DNA from: an uncultured Alphaproteobacteria bacterium
GTDB lineage: Bacteria; Pseudomonadota; Alphaproteobacteria; SP197
Direction: 5' to 3'
NCBI GenBank assembly: GCA_943787175.1
Contig: CALSLK010000003.1
Location: 67,409-131,408, forward strand
Length of the DNA stretch: 64,000 nt
Both the position numbers and the translations under genes were made by a program. Shown in pieces: positions 1,533-55,194 of the stretch; the first letter of the stretch is position 1; every line of letters starts with the position of its first letter. Under the pieces are notes generated by a model. That model was not told the DNA's origin, did not search any database, and saw nothing but the letters and a program-made list of their open reading frames with translations.

Positions 1533-3381
1533 CTAGTGGTTTTCGGCCAGGATCGTATCGCCTGTCGGGATACGGGTCTCGTCAACCATGGCCTGGATCT
1601 CTGCATCAGGCTCTGGCGTCATGAGCGACACCGCGACCATCGCGACCAGGGCTAACCGGCGCATGCCGATCATGCCGAACCGCAGGTGGTCGATGCCCAT
1701 CCATGAGCGGATCGCCACCGGTGTAGACGTAGTAGAGGTACGCCGAACCGGCGACCAAAGCCGAGCTGCCATGCCGGCTACCGCGCCCGCGTCGGTTCGC
1801 CCGTCTTCCACCAGATCGCCGAGGACCAGCGGGAAGAACAGCCCCGAACATGGCGAAGCAGAACGCCCAGGCCACCGCGCCCAGGATCCCGGTCAGCTTG
1901 CAGGGACTGGCAACCGCGCGCACGCCGCCGCCCCGATCACCAGCAGCAGGATACGGGCCACCATCAAGGCGCTGCTTCGTTTCCGCCTTGCGGGTCGATG
2001 ATCTTGTAGTAGAGATCGTGGCTCAGCGCGTTCGCGATCGCCAGCAGCAGGCCGTCGGCAGTCGACATGGCTGCTGCCATGCCACCGGCGGCGACAAGGC
2101 CGGAAATCACATACGGCAGACCGGCGATCTCTGGGGTCGCCAGCACGACAATGTCGGGCCGCATGAAGAACTCGTTGAGCTGAACCGTTCCGTTGCCGTT
2201 GGAGTCGACAATGCCGACCATCCCGACTTCCATCCAGTTCTGGATCCACTCCAGGCTCAGGACATGTTCGACCGATTGGCCGATGACCGCCGTTGCAAGG
2301 GTGGGATCAAGAAGCTGCAACTTCGTGAGCGTGGCAAGGGCCGGCGCCGTGAAGTACAGCAGGAAGATGAAGAACAGCGAAAAGGCCACCGACTTGCGTG
2401 CTGAACGCACAGACGGTGTCGTGAAGTAGCGCATGAGAATATGCGGCAGCGATGCCGTTCCAGCCATCATGCACAGGGCAAGTGTAACGAACTTCCACGA
2501 ATCAAACCCGCCCTGGGGGTCGAAATGCGGTGTTGTGAGAACCTTCAGGCTGCCCATAGCCTCCTGTGCGGCTGCAGCTGCTGGCTCTAGGCCGTATTCA
2601 GCTTGCAGTTCGGCGATGCGTTGTGCCGCCTCGCCATAAGTAAAATGCGGGACGATACCAAAGCCCTGAGCATTGGACATCCAGATGACCGGCACCAGAT
2701 AGGCGATGATCAGCACGATGTACTGGGCGACCTGGGTCCATGTCACGCCGCGCATACCACCCAGCATGGAGCAGAGCAGGATGCCCAGTAGTCCGAACCA
2801 CACACCAATCTCGAATGGAATGGCCAGAGCACGTGAGGCAATGGTGCCCGTGGCATTGATCTGCGCCGTCACATAGGTGAACGACGCAACCACCAGCACG
2901 ATTACGGCGCAAAGGCGCGCCATGTTGCCGCCATACCGGGTGCCGATGAAGTCCGGCACCGTGTAGCAGCCGAACTTGCGCAGGTACGGGGCCATCAACG
3001 CGTTCACCAGCACGTAACCGCCGGTCCAGCCGACGACGAAGCCCAGATATGCCGTGACCACCGAAATAGATGCCGCCGGCCAGCGCCACAAACGAGGCGC
3101 ACCGGACATCCAGTCCGCCGCCGTCGCCATGCCGTTGATACAGCGGGCGGTACTTCCCGGCCCGCGACGTAGTAGGCGCCCACCTCCATCGTCCGCGACA
3201 GCCAGCCGATGCCCGCGTAGATGACCAGGGTGAACAGCAGGAAGAGGATACCAATCAGACGCGCGCCGGCGCCAAAGGATTCCAGAACTGCCATGAGGGC
3301 GAAAAACGCGAGGAAACCTAGGGTGTACAGCGCATACACCTTACCCAGATTATCGATGAAACTTGAACTTTTGTTACTCAT
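1533..3381 (-). pseudogene. actP: Cation/acetate symporter ActP (sodium:solute symporter family), interrupted by at least two frame changes
   Basis: The N-terminus (MSNKSSSFIDNLGKVYALYTLGFLAFFALMAVLESFGAG...) lies in ORF 3004-3381. The core SSS-family body is in ORF 1964-3130 and the C-terminus in ORF 1533-1811, in three different frames. Either a pseudogene or indel errors. Confidence 0.7.
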
Positions 3382-3436
3382 GACGAGCCCTCCAACGATT
3401 CGCCGGCGTCGTATTCATCATCGATTTTGTCCTGGA

Positions 3437-3655
3437 TCATGTTTGAACAATGATCAGCAGAACAAAAACGATGAGCGAGCCTTGGACGATCATGTAATAG
3501 CCCAGTTCGAATCCAAGGAACGAAAAGGCGTCAAGTTCCTTGGCGAACCAAGGTACGATGAATCCAAAAGTGAACCAGATAGCAAGGACGATGTACGTCA
3601 AGCGTGACGTCTTCTTCCAATGGACTTTCCGCCTTGCGGCGTTGTCTTCCGACAT
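3437..3655 (-). CDS. DUF4212 small membrane protein, the usual partner of ActP-type symporters
   Basis: 72 aa with two TM helices, immediately upstream of and co-directional with actP. This pairing is conserved. Confidence 0.7.
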   Translation of the reverse strand: MSEDNAARRKVHWKKTSRLTYIVLAIWFTFGFIVPWFAKELDAFSFLGFELGYYMIVQGSLIVFVLLIIVQT

Positions 3656-3805: not shown

Positions 3806-4461
3806 ATGATTGCCAGACTGCTCTCACGTCTGCCCGGACCACTTAGCTCTCTTGCTGTGCGGTTCCAGATGCAGCGCATTGACTCCACGGAAGCTCTTGC
3901 CGAGTTTGTGGGAACCCGTTCAGCGTATGTCACGCAAACGGCACTCTACGGCTATCTCAAAACCCGGATGGGCACACAGTTCACGCGCTACTTCGAGGAC
4001 GGCGTGTTCTCCGAAGCAATTCGTGGTGCAGCCGAGAAGCAGTTTCGGTCCGGTCTTTGTGACCTCGCCGTTTTTGCTGCGGCAACGGCAAACACGGGTC
4101 GTAATCTCTCCGATGATCAGGTTTCGGCGCTGGCCATGCATTGTTTCATTGAGGGACATCAGCGTGCTTGCCTGAAGGTGGCTCAACGGTGATCCCTGAA
4201 GATGTTCTGGGCGGATTCCAGACTCGTCTGGCGCATGCCGATTGGATCTGGGAAGCAGAAGGGCGTCACGCTTTTGCCCGTAGCGAGGCTGACTTGATCC
4301 GTAATGCCCCGGTGATCGATCAGTACAAGAAGGAAGATGAAGAGATCGTGACCAACTCCATCCGCTTCCGCTGGCGGGACATCAGGGAACAGCTGCGCAC
4401 CAGGATCGAAAGGGATGCGTTGTGTGAAGACTGGCGGTCTCTCGGCAACAAGACGGGCTGA
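3806..4461 (+). CDS. Hypothetical protein, two overlapping ORFs that may be one frameshifted gene
   Basis: ORFs 3806-4192 and 4168-4461 overlap by 24 nt in different frames. No recognisable family. Confidence 0.3.
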
Positions 4462-4477: not shown

Positions 4478-5882
4478 ATGTCTCAGAGACAGCAACTCAG
4501 ACGATCCAATGCTCTTAAGGGCGTCCTGATCTGCATGGCGCTTGCTGCCCTGGCTTCCGGTATTCTGCTGATCCTGATCGTGGTCTCGTCCACTGCCGGA
4601 AATCGGAGTCATGTAACCGTGATCGCGGGGGGGCTGCATGATCGTTCTGATCGGTGCCTTCTGGTTTGCCATCCATCTTGTGAGAGGCTGGCAGCAAGAC
4701 CTGCAACGTCTCAGGGGAGCATTGTTACTGGCGCACGACCAGCCGGACTCCTTCAACGAACATGTGGTGCGCCTGGTTGAGAGTCAGGACCTGACGATGC
4801 TGGCAGAGACACTCGATCACATTCGGGCCCGCCGGCATGCCCGTCAGGTGGTGGCCGAAGAGCGCCTTGCTGCTGTGTTGGAGGCCATGCCAACCGCCAT
4901 CGTTGTCATCACCGGTCGCGGACTGGTCAGTCTGGTTGATGCCGCTGCAAAGCAGGTGTTGCCGTCCCAAGCCATTGCATCCGGCACGAGCATTTATGCC
5001 GCCTTGCGGCGCGAAAGCCTTGAGGCTGTGCTGCGGGACGCCGGCATGGGTCCTGGGCCGATCAAGGCCACGCTGACGACGACCGATGACCGCAAGCTCT
5101 CCGCGACGATTTCACGGTTGGGTGCAAGCGGTGGTTTTGTCCTGATCTTTGATGGCAACACCCAAGATGGATCTCCGGCAGCGCTCGAATATGACCTCGC
5201 GCTGCATGATGGTGTGCCCGAGGCAGGGCCCGCACATGCAGATACCACCCTCGAAGAGCTCCCGCTTCTTGCCTTGGATTGCGAAACCACCGGGCTTGAT
5301 CCTGCTGTGGATCGTGTGGTCTCGATTGGCGCTGTGCTGGCGCACGGCAGGCGTGTCTTTGTTCATGATAATCGCGACACCCTGGTGAAACCTGATGTTT
5401 CCATCCCGCCCAGTTCAACGGCGATCCACGGGATTGATGATGCCATGGTTGCTGGCGCCGGCGATGTTGCCGAAGAACTCCGGCAACTGGCGCAGATGGC
5501 TGCCGGACGGGTCGTTCTTGGACATAACATCGGCTTCGATCTGGCTGTTATGAGCGCAGAGGCCGCGCGCAACGGTGTTGTCTGGGAAACCCCGCTTGCC
5601 CTCGATACCAGCCAGCTTGTTGCAGCGTTGGAACCTGCCATGCAGCAGCTTGATCTTGACCGGGTGGCAGAACGCTTCGGCGTTGTGATTGCGGGCCGTC
5701 ACACCGCACTTGGTGATGCTCTTGTGGCTGCGGACCTGTTTTCGCGCCTGATACCGCTTCTGCATGACCGGGGTGTCAACACGCTGGGTGAAGCCTGGGC
5801 GTTTTCAGGCAAGGCCAAGGGGTTGCGCATGCGCCAGAAGCAGGCCGGATGGCACAGCGTTGGGGGAAGGGATGACGGCTGA
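4478..5882 (+). CDS. Membrane-anchored PAS-domain protein fused to a DEDDh (DnaQ/Pol III epsilon-like) 3'-5' exonuclease, probably frameshifted at a G7 run near 4628
   Basis: Exonuclease motifs are LALDCETTGLDP (Exo I), HNIGFDLAVM (Exo II) and HTALGDALVAADLF (Exo III). A PAS-like segment precedes them (LEAMPTAIVVITGRGLVSLVDAAAKQVL). Hydrophobic TM segments sit at the N-terminus. The first TM is in ORF 4415-4780 in another frame. Confidence 0.6.
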
Positions 5883-7033
5883 CCTTCTGGCGCGGATCGA
5901 TCCCTATCCCTATCGTCACAGGGTTCGTGAGGTGATGCGCAGCGAGCCGGTGTTCGTAGAAGCCGATATGTCCGTGGGTGAGGCCATTACGGTGATGATG
6001 TCGCGCAACATCTCGTCGGTTCTTGTCGCGTCGGGGCAGGGCACAGACGGCATAGGAATTGTGACCGAGCACGATGCCTTGCGGGCCATCGCTGGAGATG
6101 GCGAAAGCGGCCTTGCACGGCCATGTCGAGAGGTCATGTCGCACCCGCTTTTTCGTGTTTCTGCTGATGACTATCTCCACGTTGCCATCGGACGCATGGC
6201 AAGGCTTGGCCTTCGCCATCTCGTTGTCTGCGATGAAAAGGATGCGGTCTGCGGCATTGTGACCTCCCGCGCGCTGGTCAAACACCGATCGGTCCATGCG
6301 CTGATGATCGGTGATGAGTTACGTGCAGCAGGTTCCGTTGATGCACTAAAGGCTGCGCATGATCGGCTGGTGGGCATGGCTCAGGGCTTGCTTGGCGATC
6401 AGGTAACCGCATCGACCATTGCTGCCGTCATTGCCGGGTTTTATCGCGATCTCACCAGGCGAGCCATGGAGTTGGCCGAACAGGAGTGTGGCGTTAGCCT
6501 GCCGCCTGAATGTTGATATCTTCTTTGATCTGGTGCGGGTGCACGGAGACCGCGAGTTGGTCGATACCTTGCGTCAGCATGCTCTGGACGAGGCTGCCAA
6601 ACCCTTGTTGCCGCGAATGATGGCTGCTGAGGTCATGGATTATCGTCCGCCGTTGAGCCTCTTTGGACGGTTTCAACTTCAGAAGGGGCGTCTTGATCTC
6701 AAGATCGAGGGTCTCTTTCCGCTTGTGGCCGGCGCGCGTGCCATGGCGCTTGCGCATCGTGTGGAAGCTACGGGAACACGCGCAAGGCTGGCTGCCGTCG
6801 CTGAGCTTAGCTTGATGGGCTCAGGCGATCTTGAGCGGTTCGGAAAAGCACACGAACTGTTTCTGGAGTTGATCCTGCGCCAGCAGATCGAAGATATGGC
6901 CGCTGGGAAAACGCCGGGCTCACTGGTTGATGTCAGCGGACTACCGCGTGCAGCCCGACGACACCTGAAAGTGGCCTTGCGTGATATCGCACACCTGCCG
7001 CAGCTGGTGCTTGATGTCGCGGCCCGTGGCTGA
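5872..7033 (+). pseudogene. CBS-pair / DUF294 (putative nucleotidyltransferase) signalling protein, frame change near 6480-6516
   Basis: A CBS pair (VMRSEPVFVEADMSVGEAI..., LRHLVVCDEKDAVCGIVTSRAL) lies in frame 1. A DUF294_C-like C-terminal domain lies in frame 2. The nucleotidyltransferase motif region appears degraded. This is the classic neighbour of actP/exonuclease loci. Confidence 0.55.
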
Positions 7034-7082
7034 CCAGCGTCCTCTGTGGTAGGAGCCGCTGATGAAATCTGGAGATCAGTAG

Positions 7083-8504
7083 ATGTTTATCGATGGTGCC
7101 TGGCAGGAGATGGAACGCCGGTTTGATATCACCAATCCGGCCGATGGGTCCGTGCTGGAAAGTATTGGTGACGGCGGAGCAGAAGAGGCGACGCAGGCAG
7201 TTGAAGCCGCGCATGCGGCATTTGCCGGCTGGGCCGGAACAACGGCCTATGAGCGGGCTGCTATTCTTTCGCGTGCCCACAAGATCATGCTGGAGCGCCG
7301 CGACGAACTTGCCCGCACCATGACGCTCGAGCAGGGCAAGCCCCTGCGCGCGGCAACCCTTGAAGTGGGCTACGGGGCAGATTTTCTGTCGTGGTTTGCC
7401 GAAGAAGCCAAACGCATCGAAGGACGCACCATTCCCTCGGCCCGGCGCGACCAGCGTTTTCTGGCGATCCGTCAGCCGGTCGGTGTGGTCGCTGCCATCA
7501 CGCCGTGGAATTATCCGGTCTCGATGATCACGCGCAAGGTGGCTCCGGCATTGGCGGCAGGCTGTACGGTTGTCCTGAAACCCGCTGAAGCCACGCCGCT
7601 GACGGCCGTGGCGATGATGCGTGTGTTCGAGGATGCGGGGGTGCCCAAGGGTGTTGTGAACCTGGTGACCTGCAGCGATCCCCGCCCGGTGGGTGATGTC
7701 TTTGTGAATCATCCCAAGGTGCGCAAGCTGACGTTCACGGGCTCGACGGCGGTCGGCAAGATGCTGGCCGGCAAGGCTGCGGCCAACATGAAGCGGGTGT
7801 CCTGCGAGCTGGGAGGCCATGCGCCGTTCCTGGTGTTCGAGGATGCCGATCCCGTGCATGCCGCCAAGGGCGCGCAACTGGTGAAATTCCTCAACACGGG
7901 GCAGGCCTGCATCAGCCCAAACCGGATCTTCGTACATCGTGCCAATCTTGAGCCATTTGTGGCGACGCTGACCGAACGTGTCGCCAAACTGAAGGTTGGT
8001 AGTGGACTGGATGAAGGTGTTGCCATTGGCCCGCTGGTCAACGAAGCAGCGGTCGAAAAGATGTCCAGGCAGGTCGAAGACGCACGTGATCGCGGTGCCG
8101 GTGTCGCCTGTGGCGGCAGCCGACTCACTGATGGAGGCCTGGATCGCGGGCACTTTTATGCGCCGACAGTTCTGACCGACGTCACGCCTGACATGCTCAT
8201 CTATCGTGAAGAAACCTTTGGCCCTATCGCGCCAATCATTCCCTTCGAGGATGAATCCGAAGTGATCGCCATGGCCAACGACACCGAATACGGTCTGGCG
8301 GCCTATATCTACACCCGTGATATCGCGCGGGCGTTCCGCACATTCGAGGCACTCGACTTCGGGATCATCGGGATCAACGACATCAATCCGACCTCTGCGG
8401 CGGCACCCTTTGGCGGCATGAAAGATAGTGGGCTAGGGCGCGAAGGCTCCCATGAGGGGCTGGACGAGTATCTCGAAACCAAACTGGGCGGCTTTGCAAT
8501 CTGA
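7083..8504 (+). CDS. gabD: NAD(P)-dependent aldehyde dehydrogenase, succinate-semialdehyde dehydrogenase-like
   Basis: 473 aa with ALDH-family hallmarks: a catalytic Cys region (GQACISPNR) and a Glu region (VSCELGGHAPFLVF). The best fit is GabD-type SSADH. Confidence 0.75.
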   Translation: MFIDGAWQEMERRFDITNPADGSVLESIGDGGAEEATQAVEAAHAAFAGWAGTTAYERAAILSRAHKIMLERRDELARTMTLEQGKPLRAATLEVGYGADFLSWFAEEAKRIEGRTIPSARRDQRFLAIRQPVGVVAAITPWNYPVSMITRKVAPALAAGCTVVLKPAEATPLTAVAMMRVFEDAGVPKGVVNLVTCSDPRPVGDVFVNHPKVRKLTFTGSTAVGKMLAGKAAANMKRVSCELGGHAPFLVFEDADPVHAAKGAQLVKFLNTGQACISPNRIFVHRANLEPFVATLTERVAKLKVGSGLDEGVAIGPLVNEAAVEKMSRQVEDARDRGAGVACGGSRLTDGGLDRGHFYAPTVLTDVTPDMLIYREETFGPIAPIIPFEDESEVIAMANDTEYGLAAYIYTRDIARAFRTFEALDFGIIGINDINPTSAAAPFGGMKDSGLGREGSHEGLDEYLETKLGGFAI

Positions 8505-8926
8505 TGTCTGATCAAACCGTGTTTGTCCTCGACCCCAGATTGGAAGGTGATTCCGTTCCTGTTTGCGACCTTGGCCTCTGTACGGTGCGACTGATGAACG
8601 ATGCACGGTTTCCCTGGGTCATCCTGGTTCCACGCATCGCAGGCCTGGTCGAACTGATCGACCTTTCGGAAGCGGATCGCCGAACGGTGACCGATGAAAT
8701 CGACCGTGTGACACGTGCGTTATCATCGCACACCAGCGCCGAGAAGATGAATGTGGCTGCGTTGGGCAACATGGTCCGTCAGCTTCATGTGCACGTGATT
8801 GCGCGATTTGCTGGTGATGCGGCATGGCCGGGGCCGATCTGGGGTGTGGGAACGGCGCAGGCCTATGTCGAAGGTGACAGAATGGAACGGGTGGATGCTT
8901 TGAAAGCAGCGCTAATCGGCGCGTGA
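8504..8926 (+). CDS. HIT (histidine triad) family protein
   Basis: 140 aa with the HxHxHxx motif (QLHVHVIAR). Confidence 0.7.
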   Translation: MSDQTVFVLDPRLEGDSVPVCDLGLCTVRLMNDARFPWVILVPRIAGLVELIDLSEADRRTVTDEIDRVTRALSSHTSAEKMNVAALGNMVRQLHVHVIARFAGDAAWPGPIWGVGTAQAYVEGDRMERVDALKAALIGA

Positions 8927-8958
8927 TGCCCAGGTTGAATCCGGTTTAGGGTGGCTTC

Positions 8959-10563
8959 ATGAAATCGGAAAACGAATACGACTACATTATTGTCGGTGCG
9001 GGGTCGGCGGGTTGCGTGCTTGCCAATCGATTGTCTGAGGATCCCGATTGTCGCGTCCTGGTTCTTGAGGCCGGGGCAAAAGACTGGAGCCCGATGATCC
9101 GTATGCCAATCGGTGAAATCTTCACCGTGGGCAGCCGCTATGACTGGAAATTCGTGTCAGAGCCGGAACCCATGCTTGATGGTACCCGTGTGGGCCTGCC
9201 CCGTGGGCGTGTGCTGGGTGGGTCTTCGTCCATCAATGGTCAGCTCTACGTGCGTGGCCATGAACGTGATTATGACGAGTGGGCGCAGCTTGGCTGCAGG
9301 GGCTGGTCGTTTGATGATGTCTTGCCCTGCTTCAAGAAGTCAGAGCGCTGGAAGGGGCCTCAGAGCGAGCGGCGCGGCACCGATGGCCCCTTGCGAACGG
9401 CGTTGGGGCGCTATGACAATCCGCTCTACAGCGCCTTTCTGAAAGCCGGTCAGGAGATCGGCTATTCCCTGACGGAAGATTTCAACGGCGATGTGCAGGA
9501 AGGTTTTGGTCTTTCCCAATATACTCATGCGCACTGGTTCCCGCTGCGTCACTCCTCGGCCAACGCCTATCTACGTCCGGCCAAGCGGCGCCGCAATGTC
9601 ACGGTCCTGACGGATGCGCGGGCACTGAAGCTGATTCTGGAGGGTGACACCTGCAAGGGCGTGTTGTGCGATGTGCGCGGGGAGATCAAGACGCTGCGTG
9701 CGACGCGCGAGGTCGTTCTGGCAGCAGGTGCCTATCAGTCACCCCAGCTCCTGATGTTATCGGGGATCGGTGACCCCGATCATCTGCGCGAGCTTGGCAT
9801 TGACGTGACCTGCCCGCTGTCTGGTGTCGGTGCCAACCTTCAGGATCACTTTGGTTCGATGGTGCAGCATCGGTGTACCCAGCCGATTACCTATCATCGC
9901 CTGCGCAATCCCCTGAAATTGGCTGCAGCGGTGCTGCAACTGGGTTTGACACGCAGCGGTCCGCTTGCCGTATTCCCGATGAATGCACAGGCCTATGTGA
10001 AATCCGACCCTGCGCTGGAACGTCCAGATCTGCAGTTCTTCATGTTCCCGGTCGCAGTCCAGCCTGACAGTGATGATCTGCACTACTCTGGCTACAGCGG
10101 GTACAACATCCATTGGGCGATTCTGCGCCCACGGTCCATCGGCTCGGTCAGACTGCGTTCAGCGTCGCCCTATGATGCGCCGGTCATCCGGCACAATTAT
10201 CTGGCTGATCCCGAGGATCGCAGGCTCAACCGTGAGGCCTTCCACATTGCGCGCCGAATTCATGCCGCCAGTGCATTCGATGCATATCGGGGTGAAGAGG
10301 TTGATCCGGGGCCCGAATGCATCAGCGATGCTGACATTGACCGTCATGTCGCCCGGTTCCATTCGACCCATTACCACCCGGCAGGAACCTGCAAGATGGG
10401 GATCGACGACCATGCCGTGGTTGATCCAAAGCTCAAGGTGCGGGGAATCGAAGGACTGCGCGTTGTCGATGCCTCGATCATGCCGCGTCTGGTTGGTGGT
10501 AATACGAATGCACCAACCATGATGATCGGCGAGCGTGCTGCCGAACTGATTGCACAGGGCTGA
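8959..10563 (+). CDS. GMC family oxidoreductase (choline dehydrogenase-like)
   Basis: N-terminal FAD fold DYIIVGAGSAGCVLANRLSE, GMC signatures and a C-terminal HPAGTCKMG motif. 534 aa. Confidence 0.85.
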   Translation: MKSENEYDYIIVGAGSAGCVLANRLSEDPDCRVLVLEAGAKDWSPMIRMPIGEIFTVGSRYDWKFVSEPEPMLDGTRVGLPRGRVLGGSSSINGQLYVRGHERDYDEWAQLGCRGWSFDDVLPCFKKSERWKGPQSERRGTDGPLRTALGRYDNPLYSAFLKAGQEIGYSLTEDFNGDVQEGFGLSQYTHAHWFPLRHSSANAYLRPAKRRRNVTVLTDARALKLILEGDTCKGVLCDVRGEIKTLRATREVVLAAGAYQSPQLLMLSGIGDPDHLRELGIDVTCPLSGVGANLQDHFGSMVQHRCTQPITYHRLRNPLKLAAAVLQLGLTRSGPLAVFPMNAQAYVKSDPALERPDLQFFMFPVAVQPDSDDLHYSGYSGYNIHWAILRPRSIGSVRLRSASPYDAPVIRHNYLADPEDRRLNREAFHIARRIHAASAFDAYRGEEVDPGPECISDADIDRHVARFHSTHYHPAGTCKMGIDDHAVVDPKLKVRGIEGLRVVDASIMPRLVGGNTNAPTMMIGERAAELIAQG

Positions 10564-10630
10564 TACGACCGTTGAACTGGGGTGTGGTTTTGATGCAAAA
10601 AGGCTTCTGGCAGGCAGGTGCGATTCCCAG

Positions 10631-11461
10631 ATGAGTTTGAAAGATCTCAGTTACGTCCGGCATGAATATCCCGCTTTGCAGCGTGTGATGTTCCGCATGC
10701 TGGAGCTGATAAGCGGTCAGGCGCGTTTCCTGCGCACCTATGGTGATCACTTTGATCCCTGGTTGGACGCGATGCGCAGGCGCGAGCCCTGGGCGTGGAA
10801 TGACGGCCTCGACCGTCTGGGCATCGAACGCCGCATTCATGGTGAGGCCTGGCCTGTCGATGTTCCCAAGGGTCAGCCGATCGTGATGGTGGCCAATCAT
10901 CCCTTCGGCGTGCTCGACGGAACCACGATGCTGGCCCTGGCAGAACATCTGGAGCGCCCCATCAAGGTTATGATCGACAAGGCTTTGCTGCGCTTTGAGC
11001 CGCTGCGCGAATACGCCCTGCCGGTTGATTTCACGGAAACACAGGAAGCCAGGCAGACGAATGTGGAGAGCCGGCGCGAAGCCCGCGCTTGCCTCAGTCG
11101 TGGCGAGACCATCATTGTCTTTCCTGCTGCCGGCGTTGCAATAGCGCGCAACCCCTTTGGTCCGTCTGTCGATCAGCCCTGGGGTCCGCTGACGGCCAGC
11201 CTGATTCTCGATACCCAGGCAACCACGGTGCCGGTGTTCTTTCCCGGGCGGTGCAGCACAATGTTTCACCTGTTTGGCCGCATCAAACTCGACCTGCGTC
11301 GAACGCTGATGGCCAGTGAATTTTTCCGGCGCTGTGGCACGCCCATCGACCTTCATGTCGGCAAGCCGATCCCGGCAGGCGAGCTTGAGGCGATGGACGA
11401 TCGAACTGCGATCATGCAGCACCTCCGTGCGGTCGTGCATCAGCTCGGTGGTTTGCGATAA
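10631..11461 (+). CDS. Lysophospholipid / PlsC-family acyltransferase (hemolysin-like)
   Basis: HX4D acyltransferase motif (VANHPFGVLDG) and a PAAG-like motif (VFPAAGVAIA). Confidence 0.6.
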   Translation: MSLKDLSYVRHEYPALQRVMFRMLELISGQARFLRTYGDHFDPWLDAMRRREPWAWNDGLDRLGIERRIHGEAWPVDVPKGQPIVMVANHPFGVLDGTTMLALAEHLERPIKVMIDKALLRFEPLREYALPVDFTETQEARQTNVESRREARACLSRGETIIVFPAAGVAIARNPFGPSVDQPWGPLTASLILDTQATTVPVFFPGRCSTMFHLFGRIKLDLRRTLMASEFFRRCGTPIDLHVGKPIPAGELEAMDDRTAIMQHLRAVVHQLGGLR

Positions 11462-11474
11462 TTCCATCTGCTGG

Positions 11475-11500
11475 CGCTGCATTAATACAGCGCCTGATGC
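11475..11500. repeat. Inverted repeat CTGCAT-N14-ATGCAG in the intergenic region upstream of the sigma-54 promoter
   Basis: A perfect 6-bp inverted repeat seen directly in the sequence. Candidate upstream activator site or weak terminator. Confidence 0.3.
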
Positions 11501-11608
11501 AGAAATTCATCGATCGTTGACGTTCTGAAGCACACACAAATCTGGCGTGTTTTCCTAAGTTGTTGAAACACAAGAGAAATGTGAGTGGTTCCCAAGGGCG
11601 CGGACTCT

Positions 11609-11624
11609 TGGCATGCTGCTTGCT
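11609..11624 (+). promoter_or_regulatory. Sigma-54 (RpoN) -24/-12 promoter TGGCAT-GCTGC-TTGCT
   Basis: Matches the TGGCAC-N5-TTGCW consensus with exact GG-N10-GC spacing, about 65 bp upstream of the first GS-like gene. A GAFTGA-containing enhancer-binding protein is encoded in the same gene string. Confidence 0.6.
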
Positions 11625-11689
11625 GTCTAATTGTACAACAAGCGCTAGCCGGCAATGTATCGGAGCGCAGGGAATGAGGGGCTGAGGGC

Positions 11690-13048
11690 ATGGCAGCGAA
11701 GAAGTCTGCGCGCAAAACGGCGGAAAAAGGTGCGGTCGCACGGCTGCGCAAGCAGGGCGTGAAAACCGTCCACGTTGCGATCCCTGATATGGATGGAAGT
11801 CTGCGTGAACGGCGCCTGGCGCTGGACGACGTGGAAACGGCATTCGGGCCCGGCGGAACCTTCGTCAACGTGATCCACAAGTGGGATACCGGTGAAAGTG
11901 TGATTGGCGAACCACCGTTCATCGGCGAGGCCACGTCGCTCGACTGGAACAGCGTGCGCGACTATCCCTTTGAAGACGATTCAGCCTTTGTCTTTGCAGA
12001 CTTTGCCGGTCCGTCGGCAGCGCTCAGCCCCCGCGAACTTCTCAAAACCCAGATTGCGCGTGCTGCAAAGATGGGTTTTGCAGTCAAGGCTGCCATGGAA
12101 TTCGAGTTTCATGTGTTGGATGAAACAGCCGAAGCCTGTCGCGCCAAGGGCTTCGAGAATGTTGACATGTTTGCCCCCGACAACCGGTGTTGGTCGACAC
12201 AGTCTGCGGCAATCTATGCCGATTATGTGGCCGATCTTGATGCTGTCCTGAAACATGCAGGTGTTGGCCTGTTCGGACTGGGCCTGGAGCTTGGGCCCGG
12301 CTGTTTCGAAGCGACCCTGCGCGCGACCGATCCGCTGCGTGCCGCCGACGATGCGGTGCTGTTCAAGACTTTCACCAAAGCGTTTTCGCGCAGGCTGGGT
12401 CTGACAGCGACCTTCATGGCCCAGCTCAGTGCCAACCATGCCGGTCTTTCCGGCCACGTTCATTTGTCACTGGCTGATGCCAGATCCGGCAAACCGGTTT
12501 TCCACGATGCAAAGGATGCCGATGGCATGAGTGCGACCATGCGTCATGCAGTTGGTGGCATTGTTGAACTGGCACCTGAAGCCCTGGCCATGGCTGCTCA
12601 TACCGCAAATGCTTATCGTCGGCTGACGCCGGGAAACTGGGCGCCCAAGACCGCGACCTGGGCCGTGCAGAACTATGCGGCTGCGGTGCGCGCCGTTCCG
12701 GCCCCTGCCAAGCTGGCGCGCTTGGAATTCCGATTGCCGGCTTCCGATACCAACCCCTATCTGGCATTGGCCCTGACGCTGGGGTCTGCGCTGCATGGTA
12801 TTGAGACCAAGGCCAAACTGCCTGCACCCATCACACGTGGTGGTCCCGATGAAACGCCGGAAGGCGTTCCGGGCCTTCCTCATGACTTGTTGGAAGCTGC
12901 GGACCGCCTGGAGGCCTGTAAGCCCGCACGCGCCATGTTCGGCGACGTGTTCATCGATCATTTTGTCGCCACACGCCGCCACGAAGAAGCGGTCATTCGC
13001 AAACATGTCAGCGCCTTTGAAAGGGCGCGTTACATCGAGGCCGTCTGA
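11690..13048 (+). CDS. Glutamine synthetase family protein (gamma-glutamyl-amine ligase-like), paralog 1
   Basis: 452 aa with a GS catalytic-domain pattern (AMEFEFHVLDE, GLELGPGCFEATL, NAYRRLTPGNWAPK). Lacks the GlnA adenylylation features. Confidence 0.8.
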   Translation: MAAKKSARKTAEKGAVARLRKQGVKTVHVAIPDMDGSLRERRLALDDVETAFGPGGTFVNVIHKWDTGESVIGEPPFIGEATSLDWNSVRDYPFEDDSAFVFADFAGPSAALSPRELLKTQIARAAKMGFAVKAAMEFEFHVLDETAEACRAKGFENVDMFAPDNRCWSTQSAAIYADYVADLDAVLKHAGVGLFGLGLELGPGCFEATLRATDPLRAADDAVLFKTFTKAFSRRLGLTATFMAQLSANHAGLSGHVHLSLADARSGKPVFHDAKDADGMSATMRHAVGGIVELAPEALAMAAHTANAYRRLTPGNWAPKTATWAVQNYAAAVRAVPAPAKLARLEFRLPASDTNPYLALALTLGSALHGIETKAKLPAPITRGGPDETPEGVPGLPHDLLEAADRLEACKPARAMFGDVFIDHFVATRRHEEAVIRKHVSAFERARYIEAV

Positions 13049-13065
13049 CGGTTTCTCGGGGGAGA

Positions 13066-14541
13066 TTGAACTTGACCAAAGATGTTGATGCCTATGCCGA
13101 GGCACCCGGCCGCGCGGATCTGATCAAGCAGGTTCGCGCCAAGATCGATGAGCTGGGAATTGATTTCGTTTACTATCAGTACATCTCGATCACCGGACGC
13201 ATCATGGGCAAGGCGGTGCCTGCGCCCCATTGGGAAACGATTGCCATGAAGGGCATTCAGACCTGGGTCGGTGGCCTCACCAACGTCTTGCCGAACCGTG
13301 CAGGAACCCTGCTCGGGTTTGATTCCAACGCCCATGAACTGGTCGCGCTGCCGGATCCGGAAACGTTCTGTCAGCTTCCCTGGAACAAGCGGACCGCGCG
13401 GGTTTATTGCACCGTCTTCAACGGTCGCGAGGAACCTGAAAACCCCGGCGCGTTCATGGATGAAGATTGCCGAGGCAATTTGCGGCGCGTGAACCAGAAG
13501 TTCATGGACGATCATGACGGTCTGCACATGCGCCACGGTTGCGAGCCCGAGATGGCTTGGCTGTACAAGCCTGAGGACGGGAAGTTGCAGGGTGGGCCGA
13601 CCAAGCCGTTGGCCTATCACATCGATCAGTTCGAAGAGCTTTCCAGCGTCTACATGAAGGTCATCGACTACGGTCAGGCCATGGGGCTCGACATGATCCA
13701 GGGCGATCACGAAGATGCGCCTGGCCAGCTGGAGCTCAACTTCACCTATGACGAAGCCCTGCGCACGGCAGATCGCCTGACGACCTATCGTCAGATCTGC
13801 GCCCAGGTCGCACGTGAAGAAGGCCTGATCGCCTGCTTCATGTCCAAGCCGTTCCTTGGTGTCACGGCCAATGGTTGCCATCACAACATCTCGTTGTGGC
13901 GCGGTGGTGAGGGTGAAGTCGTTTCGCATGTTGATGAGCCACGTCCGGGGATGGATGGCGTATTCGAACATCGTGTGGGCGGCGATAACCTGTTCTACAG
14001 CGGCCCCGACGACTGGATGCCAGGGCCAACCGGGCTCCAGGCCATCGGTGGCATCATGGAGCATCTCCCGGCTCTGACCGCGATTGGGTCATCGACCGTG
14101 AATTCCTATCGCCGCATGCTGGATCTTGGCATGTGGGCGCCGGTCTATGCCGATTGGGGTTTCCAGAACCGCACCACTGCGCTGCGTGTTTCCGCGCCGG
14201 GCCGCCTTGAGTACCGCGCGGTTGATTCCATGGTGAACCCGTACCTGATGGCCGCAACGCTGATCGGTGCCATGGACGATGGGATCAAACGCAACATTGA
14301 TCCCGGTGAACCGGAACAGCGCAACATCTATGACGCCATGGAAGCGGGCAAGGAAGTCAAACGCCTGCCCAAGTACTTTGGTGACGCGCTTGATGCGCTG
14401 GCTGCCGACGAGGTCGTGAAATCTGCGATGCCAGGCGGGCTCTACGATATCTATGACGAGTACAAGCGTGACGAATGGGATCGTTTCAATGCCGAGGTAA
14501 GCAGTTGGGATGTCGAAAAATATCTCGACTGCCTGCCATAA
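13066..14541 (+). CDS. Glutamine synthetase family protein (GlnA-like N-terminal beta-grasp plus catalytic domain), paralog 2
   Basis: 491 aa with GS-family motifs (HGCEPEMAWLY, QLELNFTYDEAL, NSYRRMLDLGMWAPVYADWGFQNR). TTG start with a GGGGGAG Shine-Dalgarno upstream. Confidence 0.8.
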   Translation: MNLTKDVDAYAEAPGRADLIKQVRAKIDELGIDFVYYQYISITGRIMGKAVPAPHWETIAMKGIQTWVGGLTNVLPNRAGTLLGFDSNAHELVALPDPETFCQLPWNKRTARVYCTVFNGREEPENPGAFMDEDCRGNLRRVNQKFMDDHDGLHMRHGCEPEMAWLYKPEDGKLQGGPTKPLAYHIDQFEELSSVYMKVIDYGQAMGLDMIQGDHEDAPGQLELNFTYDEALRTADRLTTYRQICAQVAREEGLIACFMSKPFLGVTANGCHHNISLWRGGEGEVVSHVDEPRPGMDGVFEHRVGGDNLFYSGPDDWMPGPTGLQAIGGIMEHLPALTAIGSSTVNSYRRMLDLGMWAPVYADWGFQNRTTALRVSAPGRLEYRAVDSMVNPYLMAATLIGAMDDGIKRNIDPGEPEQRNIYDAMEAGKEVKRLPKYFGDALDALAADEVVKSAMPGGLYDIYDEYKRDEWDRFNAEVSSWDVEKYLDCLP

Positions 14542-14553
14542 GAGGAGGACCGA

Positions 14554-15420
14554 ATGTTCGAACTGACCAAGGATCAGGTCACCAGTTTTCGGGACGACGG
14601 TTACGTCTTCGCCCAGAACATGGTCGATGAGTCGACCATTGAGACAGCGCACGAGAGCTTTGAGCGCATGTTCCGAGGTGAATTTTCGACCGGGGTTTTA
14701 CCCGATGAGGTGAACTGGCAGGAGGGCAAGAGCGACCCTTCGCTGACACGCCAGATCTGCTGCGGTTGGAGAGGCGATTATGACATTGCGCGCACAGTGC
14801 TTCGCGCTGATATCGGTCGTGCCTGTGCAACGCTTGCAGGCTGGCCGGGCGCCCGTGTCTTTGTCGATAATGTGCTTTGGAAACCGGCGGGAACGCGCTC
14901 ACTGGGTCTCCATCAGGATGCAGCCTATCTGCCCTGGATGAATCCTCAGGAAATGGTGTCCTGTTGGATCGCATTGGATGATACGACCGCCAATGGCGGG
15001 ACCATGGAAGTCGTGAAGGGCTCGCACAAGTGGGCTGTTTCCAAGCCCGAAGGCGAGTTTCATGGCCCCGAGGACTATCAAAAACAGATGCGTCTTGCTG
15101 CTGCCAACGAGGGTGTCGAAGATCCTGAGGTCGTTCCCATTGTGGTGAAGAAGGGTTCGGGATCCTTCCATCATGGTCGTACCTGGCATGGATCGGGCCC
15201 CAACGAGTCTGGAAATCCGCGTCGCTCACTGGTGGTGCACTGCATTTCATCGGAGACTCAGTTCGTTCCCGAACACATCGGTATTGGGGTTGGGCCGGTG
15301 TACGGTCGGTACATGCGCCGGGATGGCAACCCGGTGATGGACGAGGCCTATTTTCCGATCCTGTGGACCCAGGACGGTTATCGTACGCCTTGGGTCGATG
15401 ACTATATGGCTGCTGCCTGA
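14554..15420 (+). CDS. Phytanoyl-CoA dioxygenase (PhyH) family Fe(II)/2-oxoglutarate-dependent oxygenase
   Basis: HxD facial-triad motif (LGLHQDAAY) and distal His (GSFHHGRTWHGSGPN). 288 aa. Confidence 0.8.
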   Translation: MFELTKDQVTSFRDDGYVFAQNMVDESTIETAHESFERMFRGEFSTGVLPDEVNWQEGKSDPSLTRQICCGWRGDYDIARTVLRADIGRACATLAGWPGARVFVDNVLWKPAGTRSLGLHQDAAYLPWMNPQEMVSCWIALDDTTANGGTMEVVKGSHKWAVSKPEGEFHGPEDYQKQMRLAAANEGVEDPEVVPIVVKKGSGSFHHGRTWHGSGPNESGNPRRSLVVHCISSETQFVPEHIGIGVGPVYGRYMRRDGNPVMDEAYFPILWTQDGYRTPWVDDYMAAA

Positions 15421-16295
15421 TGACGAATGCAGGCATCACCGCTGACACCGTGACTCACGCGGGGCATGATGCCCTCGACAAAGCGTCACGTGCCGAGCTT
15501 GATGTTCTGCGCGGCATTCTCGAAACCTCGCGCGATGCCTGCTGGTGTATCGAATACGATGAGCCGGTCGATATGACCGCACCAGAGCCTGAGATTTTGC
15601 GGCAGTTTTTCGAGAACGTATCGTTCTGGCGTCTCTGCAACGACGCGATGGCAAAGCTCTACAAGTTGCCGGCGGGCCTCGATTTCAATGAGCAGTCCGT
15701 GCGGTTCTACTTTCCGCGTAACGGCGACAACGAGAACTTTGTGCGCCAACTGATACGCGCAAAATTCAACATGGATGACGTGCCCTCGGTTGATAAACGC
15801 CACGACGGCAGCGTGATGCATGCTCAAAACGATGTTCGTGCCGACATTCGTGATGGAGACCTGCACAGGCTGTGGGGCACGGTGCGTGATATCAGCGCCT
15901 TCAAACATGCCGAACAGGAGCTGACACGCCAGCTTGGTGCCATGCAGGATGTTCTGACTGCCTTGCCAGATCCGGTGCTGGTGATTGATGGTGAAGGTGT
16001 TGTCGAAGCAGCCAATCCGGCGCTTGAGGCATGCCTTGGGTTCGATCTCGATACGCTCCTTGGGCGTCACCTTGATGACTTGATTGATTCGAATGGAGGC
16101 TTTGCAGGCCTGGCATCGCGGCTGCGTCGGCTGGGAAGCCCGCTGCGCTGCGATGTTTCCATGGTCACGACTGCGGGTCATCGACGGGATGCCGAAATGA
16201 ACCTGGCACGGTCCAGCGATGGGGATGGTGCGGTGCGGTTTGTCGCAAGCCTGCGTTTGCGCGATGACCATCCATCGGTGGCGGCAATGTCATGA
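15420..16295 (+). CDS. PAS-domain sensor protein, possibly the N-terminal part of the downstream enhancer-binding protein
   Basis: PAS-like folds and no output domain. The stop overlaps the next start (ATGA). Confidence 0.55.
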   Translation: MTNAGITADTVTHAGHDALDKASRAELDVLRGILETSRDACWCIEYDEPVDMTAPEPEILRQFFENVSFWRLCNDAMAKLYKLPAGLDFNEQSVRFYFPRNGDNENFVRQLIRAKFNMDDVPSVDKRHDGSVMHAQNDVRADIRDGDLHRLWGTVRDISAFKHAEQELTRQLGAMQDVLTALPDPVLVIDGEGVVEAANPALEACLGFDLDTLLGRHLDDLIDSNGGFAGLASRLRRLGSPLRCDVSMVTTAGHRRDAEMNLARSSDGDGAVRFVASLRLRDDHPSVAAMS

Positions 16296-17707: not shown

Positions 17708-17912
17708 CACGCTTCACTTGCATGTCTGACATGAACAACACCCATGAATTTGTGAATTCGGGTGGCGGCGCCCCGATGGGTCTGATGGCCCGACTAACTG
17801 CGCCGTATCCTATCCCCCCGAACGGCGTTAGAAAGGTTCTCTTGCGCCGCCGGGGTACTTCACCCCACCAAAGAGCGGTGGTAACAATGGGCAATGGAGG
17901 AGGCTTTAAGCC

Positions 17913-18983: not shown

Positions 18984-19073
18984 GCGACCTTCTACCAACG
19001 TTCGGGCCGGTTCGGCTGATCTGAACCGGCCCGTAACGTTCTCTTTCTCTTGGACGAACTGCGGTGTGACGTG

Positions 19074-21073: not shown

Positions 21074-21084
21074 GGGAGAGCATC

Positions 21085-21927: not shown

Positions 21928-21930
21928 CGA

Positions 21931-22674: not shown

Positions 22675-22681
22675 CACGATG

Positions 22682-23167: not shown

Positions 23168-23180
23168 GGCAATCTCCCGC

Positions 23181-46945: not shown

Positions 46946-47041
46946 ATGCGGTTCTGCAGGAAAAACCGTCGCCTCAATCCCTACGCCGGCATGATCCGGA
47001 TCAGGTTCGACGGGTCGGTGCGCTGGCACCTCTCAGCCCGA
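46946..47041 (-). promoter_or_regulatory. TPP (thiamine pyrophosphate) riboswitch, THI element, in the thiBPQ leader
   Basis: Minus-strand sequence GGGGAGCCC...GGGCTGAGAGG...ACCC...GAACCTGATCCGGATCATGCCGGCGTAGGGA contains the invariant CUGAGA and ACCUGAUC(C/U)GGAUAAUGCCGGCGUAGGGA THI-box elements. Confidence 0.85.
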
Positions 47042-47105
47042 ACTGGGCTCCCCGTGAGTGACAGGACAACAGATAGGTGTTCCGTGCTGCGTTGGCAAGG
47101 GTGCG

Positions 47106-47327
47106 TCAGGCGCGACGCAGCTCGAAGGTGTAGACGCCCTCGTCTTCCGTGCTGGAAAGCAGGGCATGCCCGGTGAGTTCGCTGAAGGCTGCAAAATCCT
47201 TCACGGCACTGGGGTCGGTGGCGTGAACGGTCAGCACATCGCCTGCTGCCATGGCCTTCAGGCGCTTCTTGGCCTTGAGTACGGGCAGCGGGCAGGCCAG
47301 TCCCTTGACGTCGAGTTCTTCGTTCAT
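47106..47327 (-). CDS. TusA-family sulfurtransferase (SirA/YedF/YeeD-like)
   Basis: CPxP motif near the N-terminus (LDVKGLACPLPVLKAKK). About 74 aa. Confidence 0.65.
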   Translation of the reverse strand: MNEELDVKGLACPLPVLKAKKRLKAMAAGDVLTVHATDPSAVKDFAAFSELTGHALLSSTEDEGVYTFELRRA

Positions 47328-48547: not shown

Positions 48548-48848
48548 TTTGAAACCGGGCCGGAACCTGCCCACAGTGGAAGGGGTGAAGCAAGTATGTC
48601 CGAGGGCAAAGGTGGTGAGCGATAGCAAGGCCGATAAGTCGGCTGATTCAGGGGGCTGACAATCCGACTGACCTGAAGGCTCAGCGGCTGGCAGAAGCCC
48701 TGCGTGCAAACCTGAAACGGCGCAAATCCCAGGCGCGGTGATCGCACGCAACCAGATGACGGCGATCAACAGGGCCAAGACTAGATTTCTGGCCTGGTTT
48801 TTGCTTGTCTAAAGCTGATGTCCAAGCGGTTTTCGCCAGTTTGTTACG

Positions 48849-52128: not shown

Positions 52129-53482
52129 ATGGCCACGAAAACCCCGCAAAATGAGCAGGCTTTGGAGCAACAACGCCAGCAGGCGCGTGCGGCGGCGGCC
52201 AACGGTGATCATCAAACTGCATTGAAGTTGTTTCGTGCCGCTGTAGAAGCGGCATCTGGGGACTGGACCTGCCATGTTGATCTGGCGCGTGAATTGCGTT
52301 TGCTGGGATACCTGCAAGACACGATCAACAGTTTGAGGCAGGCGATTGCTCTGGCGCCCCGGCCAGATCGAGTTACGCTGTGAGCTCATCGATGTTCTGG
52401 GCAAACTCGGCCGTGAACGTGTGATTGCAGCCGAATGCGAAGAACTCCTCAAGCTGGTTCACAACCATCCCGGCGTTCTGCTCCAGGTTGCCCTGGCGTT
52501 CGAGGAGTCGGACCAGATCGACGCCAGCCTGATGGCCCTGCGGCGCCTGATCGCGTTGCAGCCCGACCATTTCGATGCCCTGCAACATTTGCGGCGGCTG
52601 CAGACCAAACGCATTCCGCCGTGGCATTTCGCCATGATGAATGATGAACCGCGCAACCGCGCCTATGAAGCAGCCCTGCGGCGGGCCGTTACTCCCGACA
52701 CCCACGTATTCGAAATCGGTACCGGTTCGAGCATTCTTTCCATGATGGCGGCAAGGGCCGGCGCAGCGCGCGTTACGACCTGTGAGGCCAATACCCAGAT
52801 CGCCGCGGTCGCGCAGCAGATCGTCAAGGACAACGGCTATGACGACATCATTACCGTCATTCCACGCCCCAGTTGGAAAATCGACGTTGAGAAAGACCTT
52901 GGCGGCAAGGCCGATCTTTTTGTTGCCGAGATCCTGAGCGATACCCTGCTTGACGAAGGTATCCTGCGCATCACCGACCAGGCACGCTGTGACTTGCTGA
53001 AGCCTGGCGCGCAGCTCATTCCCCACGGCGTGTCGGCAATGGCATGTCTGGTCGGGGGAGAAGCGCTAGCCTCCACCACGAAGGTTACGGAAGCGGCCGG
53101 TTTCAATCTGTCTGCGTTCAACCGCTATATTCCGGCCTCGCTGTCCATCAACTCCGATAGCCGTGAGCTCCTGACCCTGAGCGACGATATCGAAGTGTTC
53201 CGGTTCGACCTGGACCAGGAACTGCCCAAGCCCGAGCAGCGGGATATCACATGTCAGGCACGCGAGGACGGGCTATGCATCGGCGTCCTGCAATGGGTTC
53301 GCCTCTATATGGATGAAGAAACCATCTTCGAGAACCGACCGGCTGATCGGTTTGCGCCTTCGGCATGGCGTCAGCGCCTGTTTCCGTTTGCCGAGCCGAT
53401 CACCGTCAAAAAGGGTGAACAGGTCGATTTTCGCGCTTCGCACAACATCGCCAGCCTTGCTTTTGATCGGAGAGTGGTTTGA
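52129..53482 (+). pseudogene. TPR-repeat N-terminus fused to a class I SAM-dependent (protein arginine methyltransferase-like) methyltransferase, frame change at a C4/G run near 52350
   Basis: TPR-like N-terminus in frame 1. SAM motif I (VFEIGTGSSILSMMAARAGA) in frame 2. The overlap of 52346-52383 suggests a single-base indel. Confidence 0.55.
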
Positions 53483-54057
53483 GCGATGTCCGGCCACTGA
53501 TTCTGGCTTCCCAATCGCCGCGTCGCCTCGACTTGCTGGCCCAGATTGGCATCACACCGGATTCTGTTGTGCCTGCCGAGCTGGATGAATCACCGCTGAA
53601 AAACGAGGCGCCCGGTCAGCTTGCTCGACGCCTGGCACAGGCCAAGGCGCAAGCCGTCGCGGTAAGTCGCACCGATGCCGCGGTCATCGGCGCCGACACC
53701 GTGGTGGCCTGTGGCAGACGGATTCTCGCCAAACCCGCCGACGCTGCAGAGGCCAGACGGTTTCTGACATTGCTGTCGGGAAGGCGTCATGTCGTGCACG
53801 GCGGATTGTGTGTGATTGTGGATGGTCGTGCTCACGTGCGTCATGTCGCGACGCGCGTGGGCGTGAAGCGTCTGTCGGATCAGGAAATCGACTGGTACCT
53901 CGACAGCGGTGAATGGCATGGCAAGGCAGGCGGTTACGCCATCCAGGGCCGCGCCGCTGCCTTCGTGGACCTCGTCAACGGCTCCTACAGCAATGTCGTG
54001 GGCCTGCCGCTTCACGAGACCGCGCAACTGCTTGGCGGGCTGGGTCTGCTGCGATGA
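53479..54057 (+). CDS. maf: Maf-like nucleoside triphosphate pyrophosphatase (septum formation protein Maf)
   Basis: Maf-family motifs (LILASQSPRR, GADTVV, SNVVGLPL). Followed by an rng-like gene, as in the E. coli yhdE-rng order. Confidence 0.85.
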   Translation: MSDVRPLILASQSPRRLDLLAQIGITPDSVVPAELDESPLKNEAPGQLARRLAQAKAQAVAVSRTDAAVIGADTVVACGRRILAKPADAAEARRFLTLLSGRRHVVHGGLCVIVDGRAHVRHVATRVGVKRLSDQEIDWYLDSGEWHGKAGGYAIQGRAAAFVDLVNGSYSNVVGLPLHETAQLLGGLGLLR

Positions 54058-55194
54058 GCGTCGATGCCATTCTTGCCGAGACGACCCCGCGTGCCATGCG
54101 CATTGCCCTGATGGAAGGCGATCGGCTTGTATCACTGCATGTTGATCGGCCAGGTAAGGGCCACAGACGAGATGACGTCTTTGCCGGCAGGGTTACACGG
54201 GTCGTGCCAGGCCTGAATGCGGCCTTTGTCGATCTTGGTGAAGGTGTGACGGGATTTCTGCGTGCCCGGGAAGCCGATGTTGATGGCTCCGGTCTGGGAA
54301 TCGCCAAACTGGTGCAGGAAGGCGGCAAGGTCACCGTTGCGATCAAGACCGATGCCCATGATGAAAAAGGCCCCGTCCTGACCCGCAAGTTCAAGGATTC
54401 TGACGGCGTGATTTCGGCTGCAGGTGTGCGGGCACAGCCGCCGCGCCTTATCAGCCGGTCCGAACAGATGCTGGTGCATCTGGCTGGGCTCTGGCCACAG
54501 GCCCGTGTCGTGGCAGACAGCCCCGCTGACCTGGTGGCGCTACGGCGCATCGAACGGGCTGGGGCGGTAACCCTGCATCAGGGCATGCAATCGTTGTTTG
54601 AAGGCGCTGGCGTCGAAGATCAGCTTGAAGAAGCGCTTGCGCCGGAGGTTCGGTTGCATTCGGGTTCCGTTTTGCGGTTTTGAACCGACCCGCACCCTGG
54701 CTGCCATTGATGTCGACAGCGCCGGGGCCAGTGAATCTGCCGGCGATGCTGTTGCCATCAATCTGGAAGCCGTGCCGGTGCTGGCCCGCCAGATCCGCTT
54801 GCGCAATCTGGGCGGTCTGATTGTCATCGACTTTCTCAAGATGCAGGACGCTTCAGCAGGCAAACGCCTGATGGGGAATCTGAGCGAGCACCTCGTGTCT
54901 GATCCCGCTGAAACGGCGCTGGATGGCCCTTCGCGTTTCGGCCTTGTGGAGATTGCCCGCCAGCGAGCCGGACCGACTCTGGCCCAGTCAACGGGAACGC
55001 CTGTTGTGGCGGCAACCGAGCGACTGATCCGTCGCTTGCGTCAGGAGTCACGTGCGCAGGGCGGGGCAGCGCTCGAGATCAGGGCGTCACCAGACGTTGC
55101 TGCTGCATTTCAGGGCGATGACGGCGGCGCATCCATTGCGCGCTGGTTGGGAAGGCGCCTGGATCTGATTGCTGAACCGGGTCCGTTCGTATGA
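54054..55194 (+). pseudogene. rng: Ribonuclease E/G family protein (RNase G-like), frame change near 54600-54680
   Basis: S1 domain plus RNase E/G catalytic-region similarity (AIDVDSAG..., GLIVIDF). The N-terminal 210 aa and C-terminal 198 aa are in different frames. Confidence 0.65.

Follow-up and report, generated by a model that had tools for sequence, protein, structure and literature searches.

Several genes in a stretch of chromosome from an uncultured Alphaproteobacteria bacterium (lineage SP197) appear to be split across reading frames, often by a single base, and the question was whether these breaks are mutations of the organism or errors of its assembly. The stretch, hereafter called the window, is 64,000 nt long (contig CALSLK010000003.1, positions 67,409 to 131,408; assembly GCA_943787175.1; G+C ∼59 %) and includes the gene of an acetate symporter (actP), which is affected most heavily. 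In its open reading frame (ORF) map, many same-strand ORFs abut or overlap in different frames at the sites named in an initial annotation made from the sequence alone. By comparison with other assemblies of the same population, the 1-base frame breaks were judged, with a probability of about 85 %, to be consensus errors of this assembly and not mutations of the organism.

Plots of the G+C content at third codon positions and codon-position frame plots separated coding from non-coding frames poorly at 59 % GC, and the shifts could not be located in this way; direct comparison with other assemblies was therefore used. The reference set comprised near-identical contigs (∼99.9 % identity or better) of the same population from 23 independent samples or assemblies, and covered positions 1–56612 and 57976–64000 of the window, that is, everything but an insertion sequence (IS) element. 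Two of the 23 samples represented a ∼2 % divergent strain; the other 21 showed at most a few differences from the window per 10 kb. References were taken from JGI metagenomes 3300028829 and 3300028844, from an ENA contig with a k141_ name and a contig with a NODE_ name (which we take to be MEGAHIT and SPAdes styles, respectively), and from many Logan assemblies of SRA runs; the same population recurs across several projects (JGI, ENA, SRA runs). Contigs were retrieved by exact-protein look-up with intact window genes as queries (aldehyde dehydrogenase, solute-binding protein, creatinase-like peptidase, DAO oxidase, LMWPc and PhyH protein). Look-ups with DUF4212, an RND fragment, the 533-aa permease and PALP-CBS gave no match, because these queries are themselves altered by indels or private amino-acid changes. 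Gene integrity was checked with 65 reference gene calls, taken from near-identical contigs and mapped to the window; Pfam assignments were made on the reference proteins. No conspecific genome was found among the GTDB species representatives, of which the nearest was the uncultured alphaproteobacterial metagenome-assembled genome (MAG) CALIUG010000115 (∼83 % nucleotide identity), followed by Rhodospirillaceae MAGs and, lower in the list, Minwuia MAGs. A literature search on the sample accessions gave no match.

Twelve of the 65 mapped genes (18 %) are frame-broken in the window, which is far above expectation for a free-living bacterium; 52 are intact with 0–1 amino-acid differences, and one (MucR) is cut by an IS junction. 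Every broken gene is full length in the references, the sole exception being the CBS-DUF294 gene in JGI contig L002. The unusual density of split genes described by the initial annotation was thus borne out, and its breaks in the PAS-exonuclease, the RND permease (three places), the omega-transaminase, the TPR-methyltransferase, the RNase G-like gene (where two sites were found) and, listed there only as possible, yacG were all recovered (Table 1). For actP, the break itself was found again, but not its restriction to two or three places, since two patches contain 25 extra bases, spread over at least 14 indel events. The CBS-DUF294 gene is also broken, by a 266-bp deletion rather than by the single-base change that had been assumed. 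A PAS/activator pair suggested as a further split gene consists of two separate genes in every assembly, both intact with 0–1 amino-acid differences; four broken genes had been missed, encoding DUF4212 and hypothetical proteins of 218, 61 and 140 aa.

Outside actP, 18 private 1-base indels were counted versus 12 private substitutions; 15 of these isolated indels lie within coding sequence. At each indel site all covering references (4/4 to 10/10 per site) were without the window's change, except at 59463 (6/7). The 1-base indels of the window were also sought in four contigs of JGI 3300028844 (L002, L006, L034 and L124), and none was present. Contig L002 is taken to represent the same sub-lineage as the window, because the identical junction of the rare 266-bp deletion is shared. 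Independent data from the same lineage reproduce only this deletion and none of the 1-base indels.

All but one of the isolated indels (17/18) change a mononucleotide run, in agreement with the homopolymer link drawn by the initial annotation; the actP patches do not follow it. Seven (39 %) fall in runs of at least four bases, versus 3.2 % expected (P=7×10⁻⁷), and the enrichment is strong for runs of at least three bases as well. The homopolymer link fits miscounting, and alone it would fit slippage mutation too.

No private substitution was found in the broken genes other than actP, even where these are hit two or three times: indels and substitutions number 3 and 0 in the RND permease gene, 2 and 0 in the RNase E/G gene, and 3 and 0 in the 61-aa gene, and the methyltransferase and aminotransferase genes also carry indels without private substitutions. 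Relaxed selection, with substitutions alongside indels as expected of decaying genes, was not seen in these genes. Among the private coding substitutions 9/11 are synonymous (P=6×10⁻⁴), set against 15 coding indels; purifying selection is therefore visible on substitutions and not on frameshifts, which makes no sense for real mutations and is expected of errors. Placement is uneven: no private difference occurs from 6506 to 23903 (17.4 kb; P∼0.001 under uniform placement), five insertions are crowded into 260 bp at 48.6–48.8 kb, and 29 indel bases lie within 3.2 kb.

Between the window and the ∼2 % divergent strain (L009, L012), two compensating pairs of 1-base indels were observed, 6–8 nt apart, at 17538/17546 and 17723/17729; they lie where the sigma54-activator gene ends and a 70-aa gene starts. 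These are natural in-frame micro-variants, in contrast to the uncompensated private indels.

The densest indel cluster, in actP, is a blend of two divergent alleles and not homopolymer error. Its differences are confined to two patches, which code for the transporter's most conserved regions; the intervening 944 bp are identical to the references. The inserted bases of the patches are accompanied by zero deletions and by 85 substitutions, of which 56 fall on codon position 3; 47 codon changes are synonymous and 27 non-synonymous, and their direction is strongly towards G/C. This profile of the substitutions therefore argues for a real selected allele as their source, not random error. Of nine single-base insertions, seven set two synonymous third-position bases side by side (e.g. 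TAT+C, GCC+A, GGC+G, CTT+G), where roughly half would be expected by chance; most of these pairs include the reference base, as judged by eye. A three-way alignment covering the gene's first 540 nt showed that, at 23/35 substitutions between window and reference, the window has the base of a foreign actP homologue; the blend changes allele within a few bases (e.g. CAC GGC + A + TATCTG). Natural ActP homologues of other taxa carry the residues IGW, MEVG, GH and VV that the patches encode; a protein search with the patch peptide returned a best match of 93 % and no exact donor. The species of CALIUG010000115 was considered as the donor and rejected, because at the 85 patch substitution sites it agrees with the reference at 60 and with the window at 13. 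Judged from these alignments, actP appears to mix the population allele with a foreign homologue almost base by base, which points to a consensus built on mixed sequences; reads or sequence of a GC-richer homologue may have been merged into the actP consensus where both genes align.

The break in the Aminotran_3 gene points in the same direction. At 34600 the references split 4:4 between GGCAACAAC and GGCGACAAC (A/G), the window reads GGC-ACAAC, and the base missing from it is the polymorphic base itself, as might be expected if the consensus had been built on mixed sequences.

Nine of the 12 private substitutions outside actP are A:T to G:C transitions; TTG→CTG occurs three times among the coding changes, and seven substitutions lie within 44.4–47.3 kb, in riboswitch-linked ABC transporter genes and TusA. 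The spectrum is neither that of random error nor that of the usual GC-to-AT mutational bias. Random platform error was rejected as the source, since the substitutions are mostly synonymous and all run from AT to GC. That the window is simply ancestral to the other samples is unlikely: at 23904, the only polarisable site, the 2 % divergent strain agrees with the references, and two clock-like branches would not be expected to give a ratio as uneven as 12 to 0. The 12 isolated substitutions may be weaker leaks from the GC-richer homologue. The riboswitch, a thiamine pyrophosphate (TPP) riboswitch at 46960–47064 on the minus strand (75.7 bits), lies upstream of a cluster of genes whose products, a 330-aa solute-binding protein, a 533-aa permease and a 236-aa ABC ATPase, presumably form a thiamine ABC transporter.

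Table 1. Frame-broken genes, private differences and related features of the window; lengths in aa are those in the references where so stated.
Feature	Position	Strand	Observation
actP/SSF symporter, 607 aa in references	1533–3381	−	+25 nt in window, many breaks
actP mosaic patch 1, C-terminal conserved segment	1644–1991	−	20 inserted bases and ∼35 substitutions, mostly at codon position 3, towards G/C
actP mosaic patch 2, N-terminal conserved segment	2936–3214	−	5 inserted bases and ∼40 substitutions
DUF4212 small subunit, 92 aa in references	3378–3655	−	T4→T3 at 3441; stop at codon 73
218-aa hypothetical protein	3806–4461	+	one C lost at 4166 (CC→C)
RNase_T exonuclease (PAS-exonuclease), 467 aa in references	4478–5882	+	G6→G7 at 4627–4633
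CBS-DUF294, 475 aa in references	5872–7033	+	266-bp deletion at 6505/6506
RND permease (ACR_tran), 1065 aa in references	28468–31664	+	loss of G at 28617 and of C at 29875, gain of C at 30375; zero substitutions
Aminotran_3, 463 aa in references	34064–35454	−	one base lost at 34600
61-aa and 140-aa hypothetical genes, adjoining tRNA-Thr	48570–48830	+	five 1-base insertions in 260 bp
TPR-PrmA-like methyltransferase, 450 aa in references	52129–53482	+	C3→C4 at 52357; 10/10 references differ from window
RNase E/G family protein, 388 aa in references	54054–55222	+	T inserted at 54678 (T3→T4) and at 55182
YacG, 100-aa reference ORF with Pfam YacG domain	55263–55566	+	T inserted at 55420 shifts C-terminal tail
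Intergenic A11 run	1475–1485		4/4 covering references read A5-C-A4; window has C→A and one extra A
Intergenic private C insertion	59463		not in 6/7 references
12 private substitutions	23904, 25591, 38984, 41270, 44415, 45347, 45635, 46899, 47234–47235, 47336, 58385		all AT→GC
PAS (291 aa) and PAS-sigma54 activator (471 aa)	15420–16295 and 16292–17707	+	two separate intact genes, same length as reference calls
IS3-family element	56613–58117	+	orfA 56699–57073, orfB 57070–58044; imperfect TG...CA terminal inverted repeats

The kind of assembly was considered from the IS3-family element. All short-read contigs end or begin at its borders, and the JGI contigs break at both; the window must therefore come from an assembly able to bridge a 1.5-kb multicopy repeat, which would imply long reads or long-range links. 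The same IS3 transposase was found in many other contexts. The window may thus have been built from long error-prone reads or by another indel-prone consensus step, and two kinds of error would have arisen. Short mononucleotide runs would have been miscounted, yielding the 18 isolated ±1 events. In addition, the consensus would have been called on mixed sequences, at polymorphic sites or where reads of a GC-richer homologue were recruited to conserved segments; such a consensus would drop a variable base, as at 34600, or write both alleles consecutively, as in the actP patches. We infer the read technology and the mixing mechanism from the product, and the commitment made here is to an indel-prone consensus on mixed data, with no named technology. 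Residual homopolymer indels are well documented in long-read assemblies without short-read polishing (PMC9262707). The choice between artefact and pseudogenisation, which the initial annotation had left undecided, thus falls to artefact for all 1-base indels, although homopolymer miscalling alone does not suffice as the cause, given the blend in actP and the loss on a single-nucleotide polymorphism (SNP) at 34600. Its pseudogenisation branch is not supported for any 1-base indel, the covering references lacking these changes (at 59463, six of seven), and probably does hold for the CBS-DUF294 deletion, which is repeated in L002.

Several observations weigh against consensus error. The comparators come from other samples, which formally leaves room for strain-specific real mutations, and replication slippage also yields 1-base homopolymer indels. 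Some structural changes in the window are real and specific to its lineage, namely the 266-bp deletion and an IS accompanied by a 9.7-kb deletion; the window hence belongs to a distinct lineage with some genuine gene loss. The private substitutions are non-random and require some real allele source. Insertions exceed deletions among the isolated indels (13:5), with 25 further inserted bases in actP, whereas a deletion bias is the usual pattern of nanopore consensus. The side-by-side arrangement of bases in actP is suggestive only, and no exact 26-mers or 30-mers from the actP patches were found in the JGI metagenome contigs.

Genuine recent pseudogenisation in a decaying or hypermutator (e.g. 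mismatch-repair-deficient) lineage, with IS activity and deletions, would accommodate the independently repeated 266-bp deletion and the replacement of 9.7 kb by IS3 as real lineage-specific changes. It would also be compatible with the location of the isolated indels in mononucleotide runs and with private substitutions that all run from AT to GC, their excess of A:T to G:C transitions (9/12) resembling a mismatch-repair-deficient spectrum. It is nevertheless considered quite unlikely, because the 1-base indels are unseen in 23 other samples of a near-clonal population (at 59463, in six of seven references), including the contig that shares the 266-bp deletion, and because the broken genes outside actP have no private substitutions despite up to three frameshifts each. 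A lineage in which nine of 11 coding substitutions are synonymous and 15 coding frameshifts are tolerated would be inconsistent in itself; 25 insertions without deletions in two actP patches, and a deletion exactly on a population SNP at 34600, would be left unexplained. A narrower form, in which the real sub-lineage marked by the 266-bp deletion and the IS3-linked heme loss is a hypermutator or in rapid decay, and in which genuine mutations include at the least the AT-to-GC substitutions and the isolated frameshifts in homopolymers, is regarded as very unlikely; if it were true, acetate uptake, the RND pump, RNase G and other functions would have been inactivated within a near-clonal, widely sampled marine population.

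For actP by itself, the patches might be a genuine recombinant allele from a divergent relative, the gene being intact in the cell and only the patch indels being erroneous, as short reads of the dominant allele could not have polished them. The mark of purifying selection on the patch substitutions, the occurrence of the patch residues in real ActP proteins, the matches to the DNA of a foreign homologue in the first 540 nt and the co-occurrence of substitutions and indels, which an unpolished tract predicts, are all in line with this. It is unlikely, however: all 25 indel bases are insertions, many of them stand at third codon positions beside the alternative synonymous base as in two merged alleles, the allele switches within a few bases, which is too fine for recombination tracts, and exact patch k-mers were not found in the JGI metagenomes. 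Restoration of the frames by programmed recoding (ribosomal frameshifting or transcriptional slippage) could draw on the homopolymeric nature of some sites (G7 at 4627; T4 and C4 runs) and is scarcely credible, as the same genes are single uninterrupted ORFs in conspecific contigs (∼99.9 % identity), the shifts are not conserved and most sites are runs of just 1–3 bases. Within the window, a plausible programmed site is offered only by the A7 run (57035–57041) at the orfA/orfB junction of IS3, which lies outside the set of frame breaks.

Two structural differences are distinct from the 1-base errors. The 266-bp deletion in the CBS-DUF294 gene removes the nucleotidyltransferase core, and its breakpoints are without microhomology. 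The identical junction is present in JGI 3300028844 contig L002 (Ga0309838_1000199) and absent from four other assemblies; because it recurs in this independent contig, the deletion is probably a genuine segregating inactivating variant. The IS3-family element, with junctions at 56612/56613 and 58117/58118, replaces 9,675 bp of the ENA contig, which encode a heme-uptake cluster (hemP, a TonB-dependent receptor, HemS, an ABC transporter and ExbB/ExbD/TonB). No target-site duplication was found at the IS junctions. At the junction the ROS/MucR gene (58074–58466, minus strand) is shortened by its last ∼77 nt and continues into the IS; its ORF has 130 aa in the window versus 113 aa in the reference call, which has a different start. 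JGI contig L125 shows the same IS end 312 bp further out, and IS activity at the locus is therefore real in the population. The loss of the 9.7-kb heme-uptake cluster is likely to be an IS-mediated deletion, and possibly a misjoin between two IS copies.

Downstream of YacG lies a truncated integrase gene (55560–56341, 178 aa) with a match to an Arm DNA-binding domain, which may be the decayed edge of an integrated element; a tRNA beside it at ∼55.6 kb, suggested by a tRNA-like translation, was not found by ARAGORN or Rfam. The same IS3 transposase is carried in other contexts by contigs L022–L024 (ENA ERZ10646505 and ERZ10645735), whose contig_N names presumably reflect the output of a long-read assembler. 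Some of their genes are called in pieces (gamma-glutamyltranspeptidase in three, PAPS reductase and an epimerase in two each); this fragmentation may reflect frameshift artefacts of the same kind.

The pattern in the window has known parallels. As in long-read assemblies (nanopore or PacBio continuous long reads), it combines isolated ±1 changes of runs that are found in one assembly only, are blind to coding sequence and inflate the pseudogene count, with an IS repeat that short-read contigs do not cross. Unlike the usual long-read errors, insertions dominate, most runs are short (2–4 bases) and the distribution is patchy, with error-free stretches of 17–24 kb that suggest partial polishing. 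The actP blend in the two most conserved segments, the tandem alleles and the base lost at the SNP at 34600 resemble consensus chimeras from collapsed haplotypes or cross-recruited reads; as a point of difference, no source of the second actP allele turned up, the JGI contigs giving no exact k-mer match and the best protein match being 93 %, and the mechanism would have to be read from its product. Many frame-broken genes together with IS activity and deletions in one region also recall Mycobacterium leprae, Sodalis and Shigella. Pseudogenes in these organisms are reproducible across isolates and accumulate substitutions under relaxed selection, whereas the breaks of the window are not in other samples, the broken genes other than actP are free of private substitutions, and clear purifying selection acts on the flanking genes.

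The frameshifts themselves hold nothing new; the structural variants are of minor interest on the side, as is the unusual spectrum of substitutions. A warning is nevertheless given for other data: errors in metagenome assemblies gather at polymorphic sites and in conserved segments that recruit reads of other taxa, so that the frameshift density of metagenome-derived assemblies can be very patchy and can locally mimic gene decay. For the organism, two structural variants merit retention as biological findings: the 266-bp CBS-DUF294 deletion and, likely, the IS3-linked loss of the 9.7-kb heme cluster. The remaining apparent gene loss is a quality problem of one assembly, from which loss of acetate uptake or efflux should not be inferred; in this organism the genes of the acetate symporter, the RND efflux pump, RNase G, the aminotransferase, the methyltransferase and YacG should be regarded as functional.

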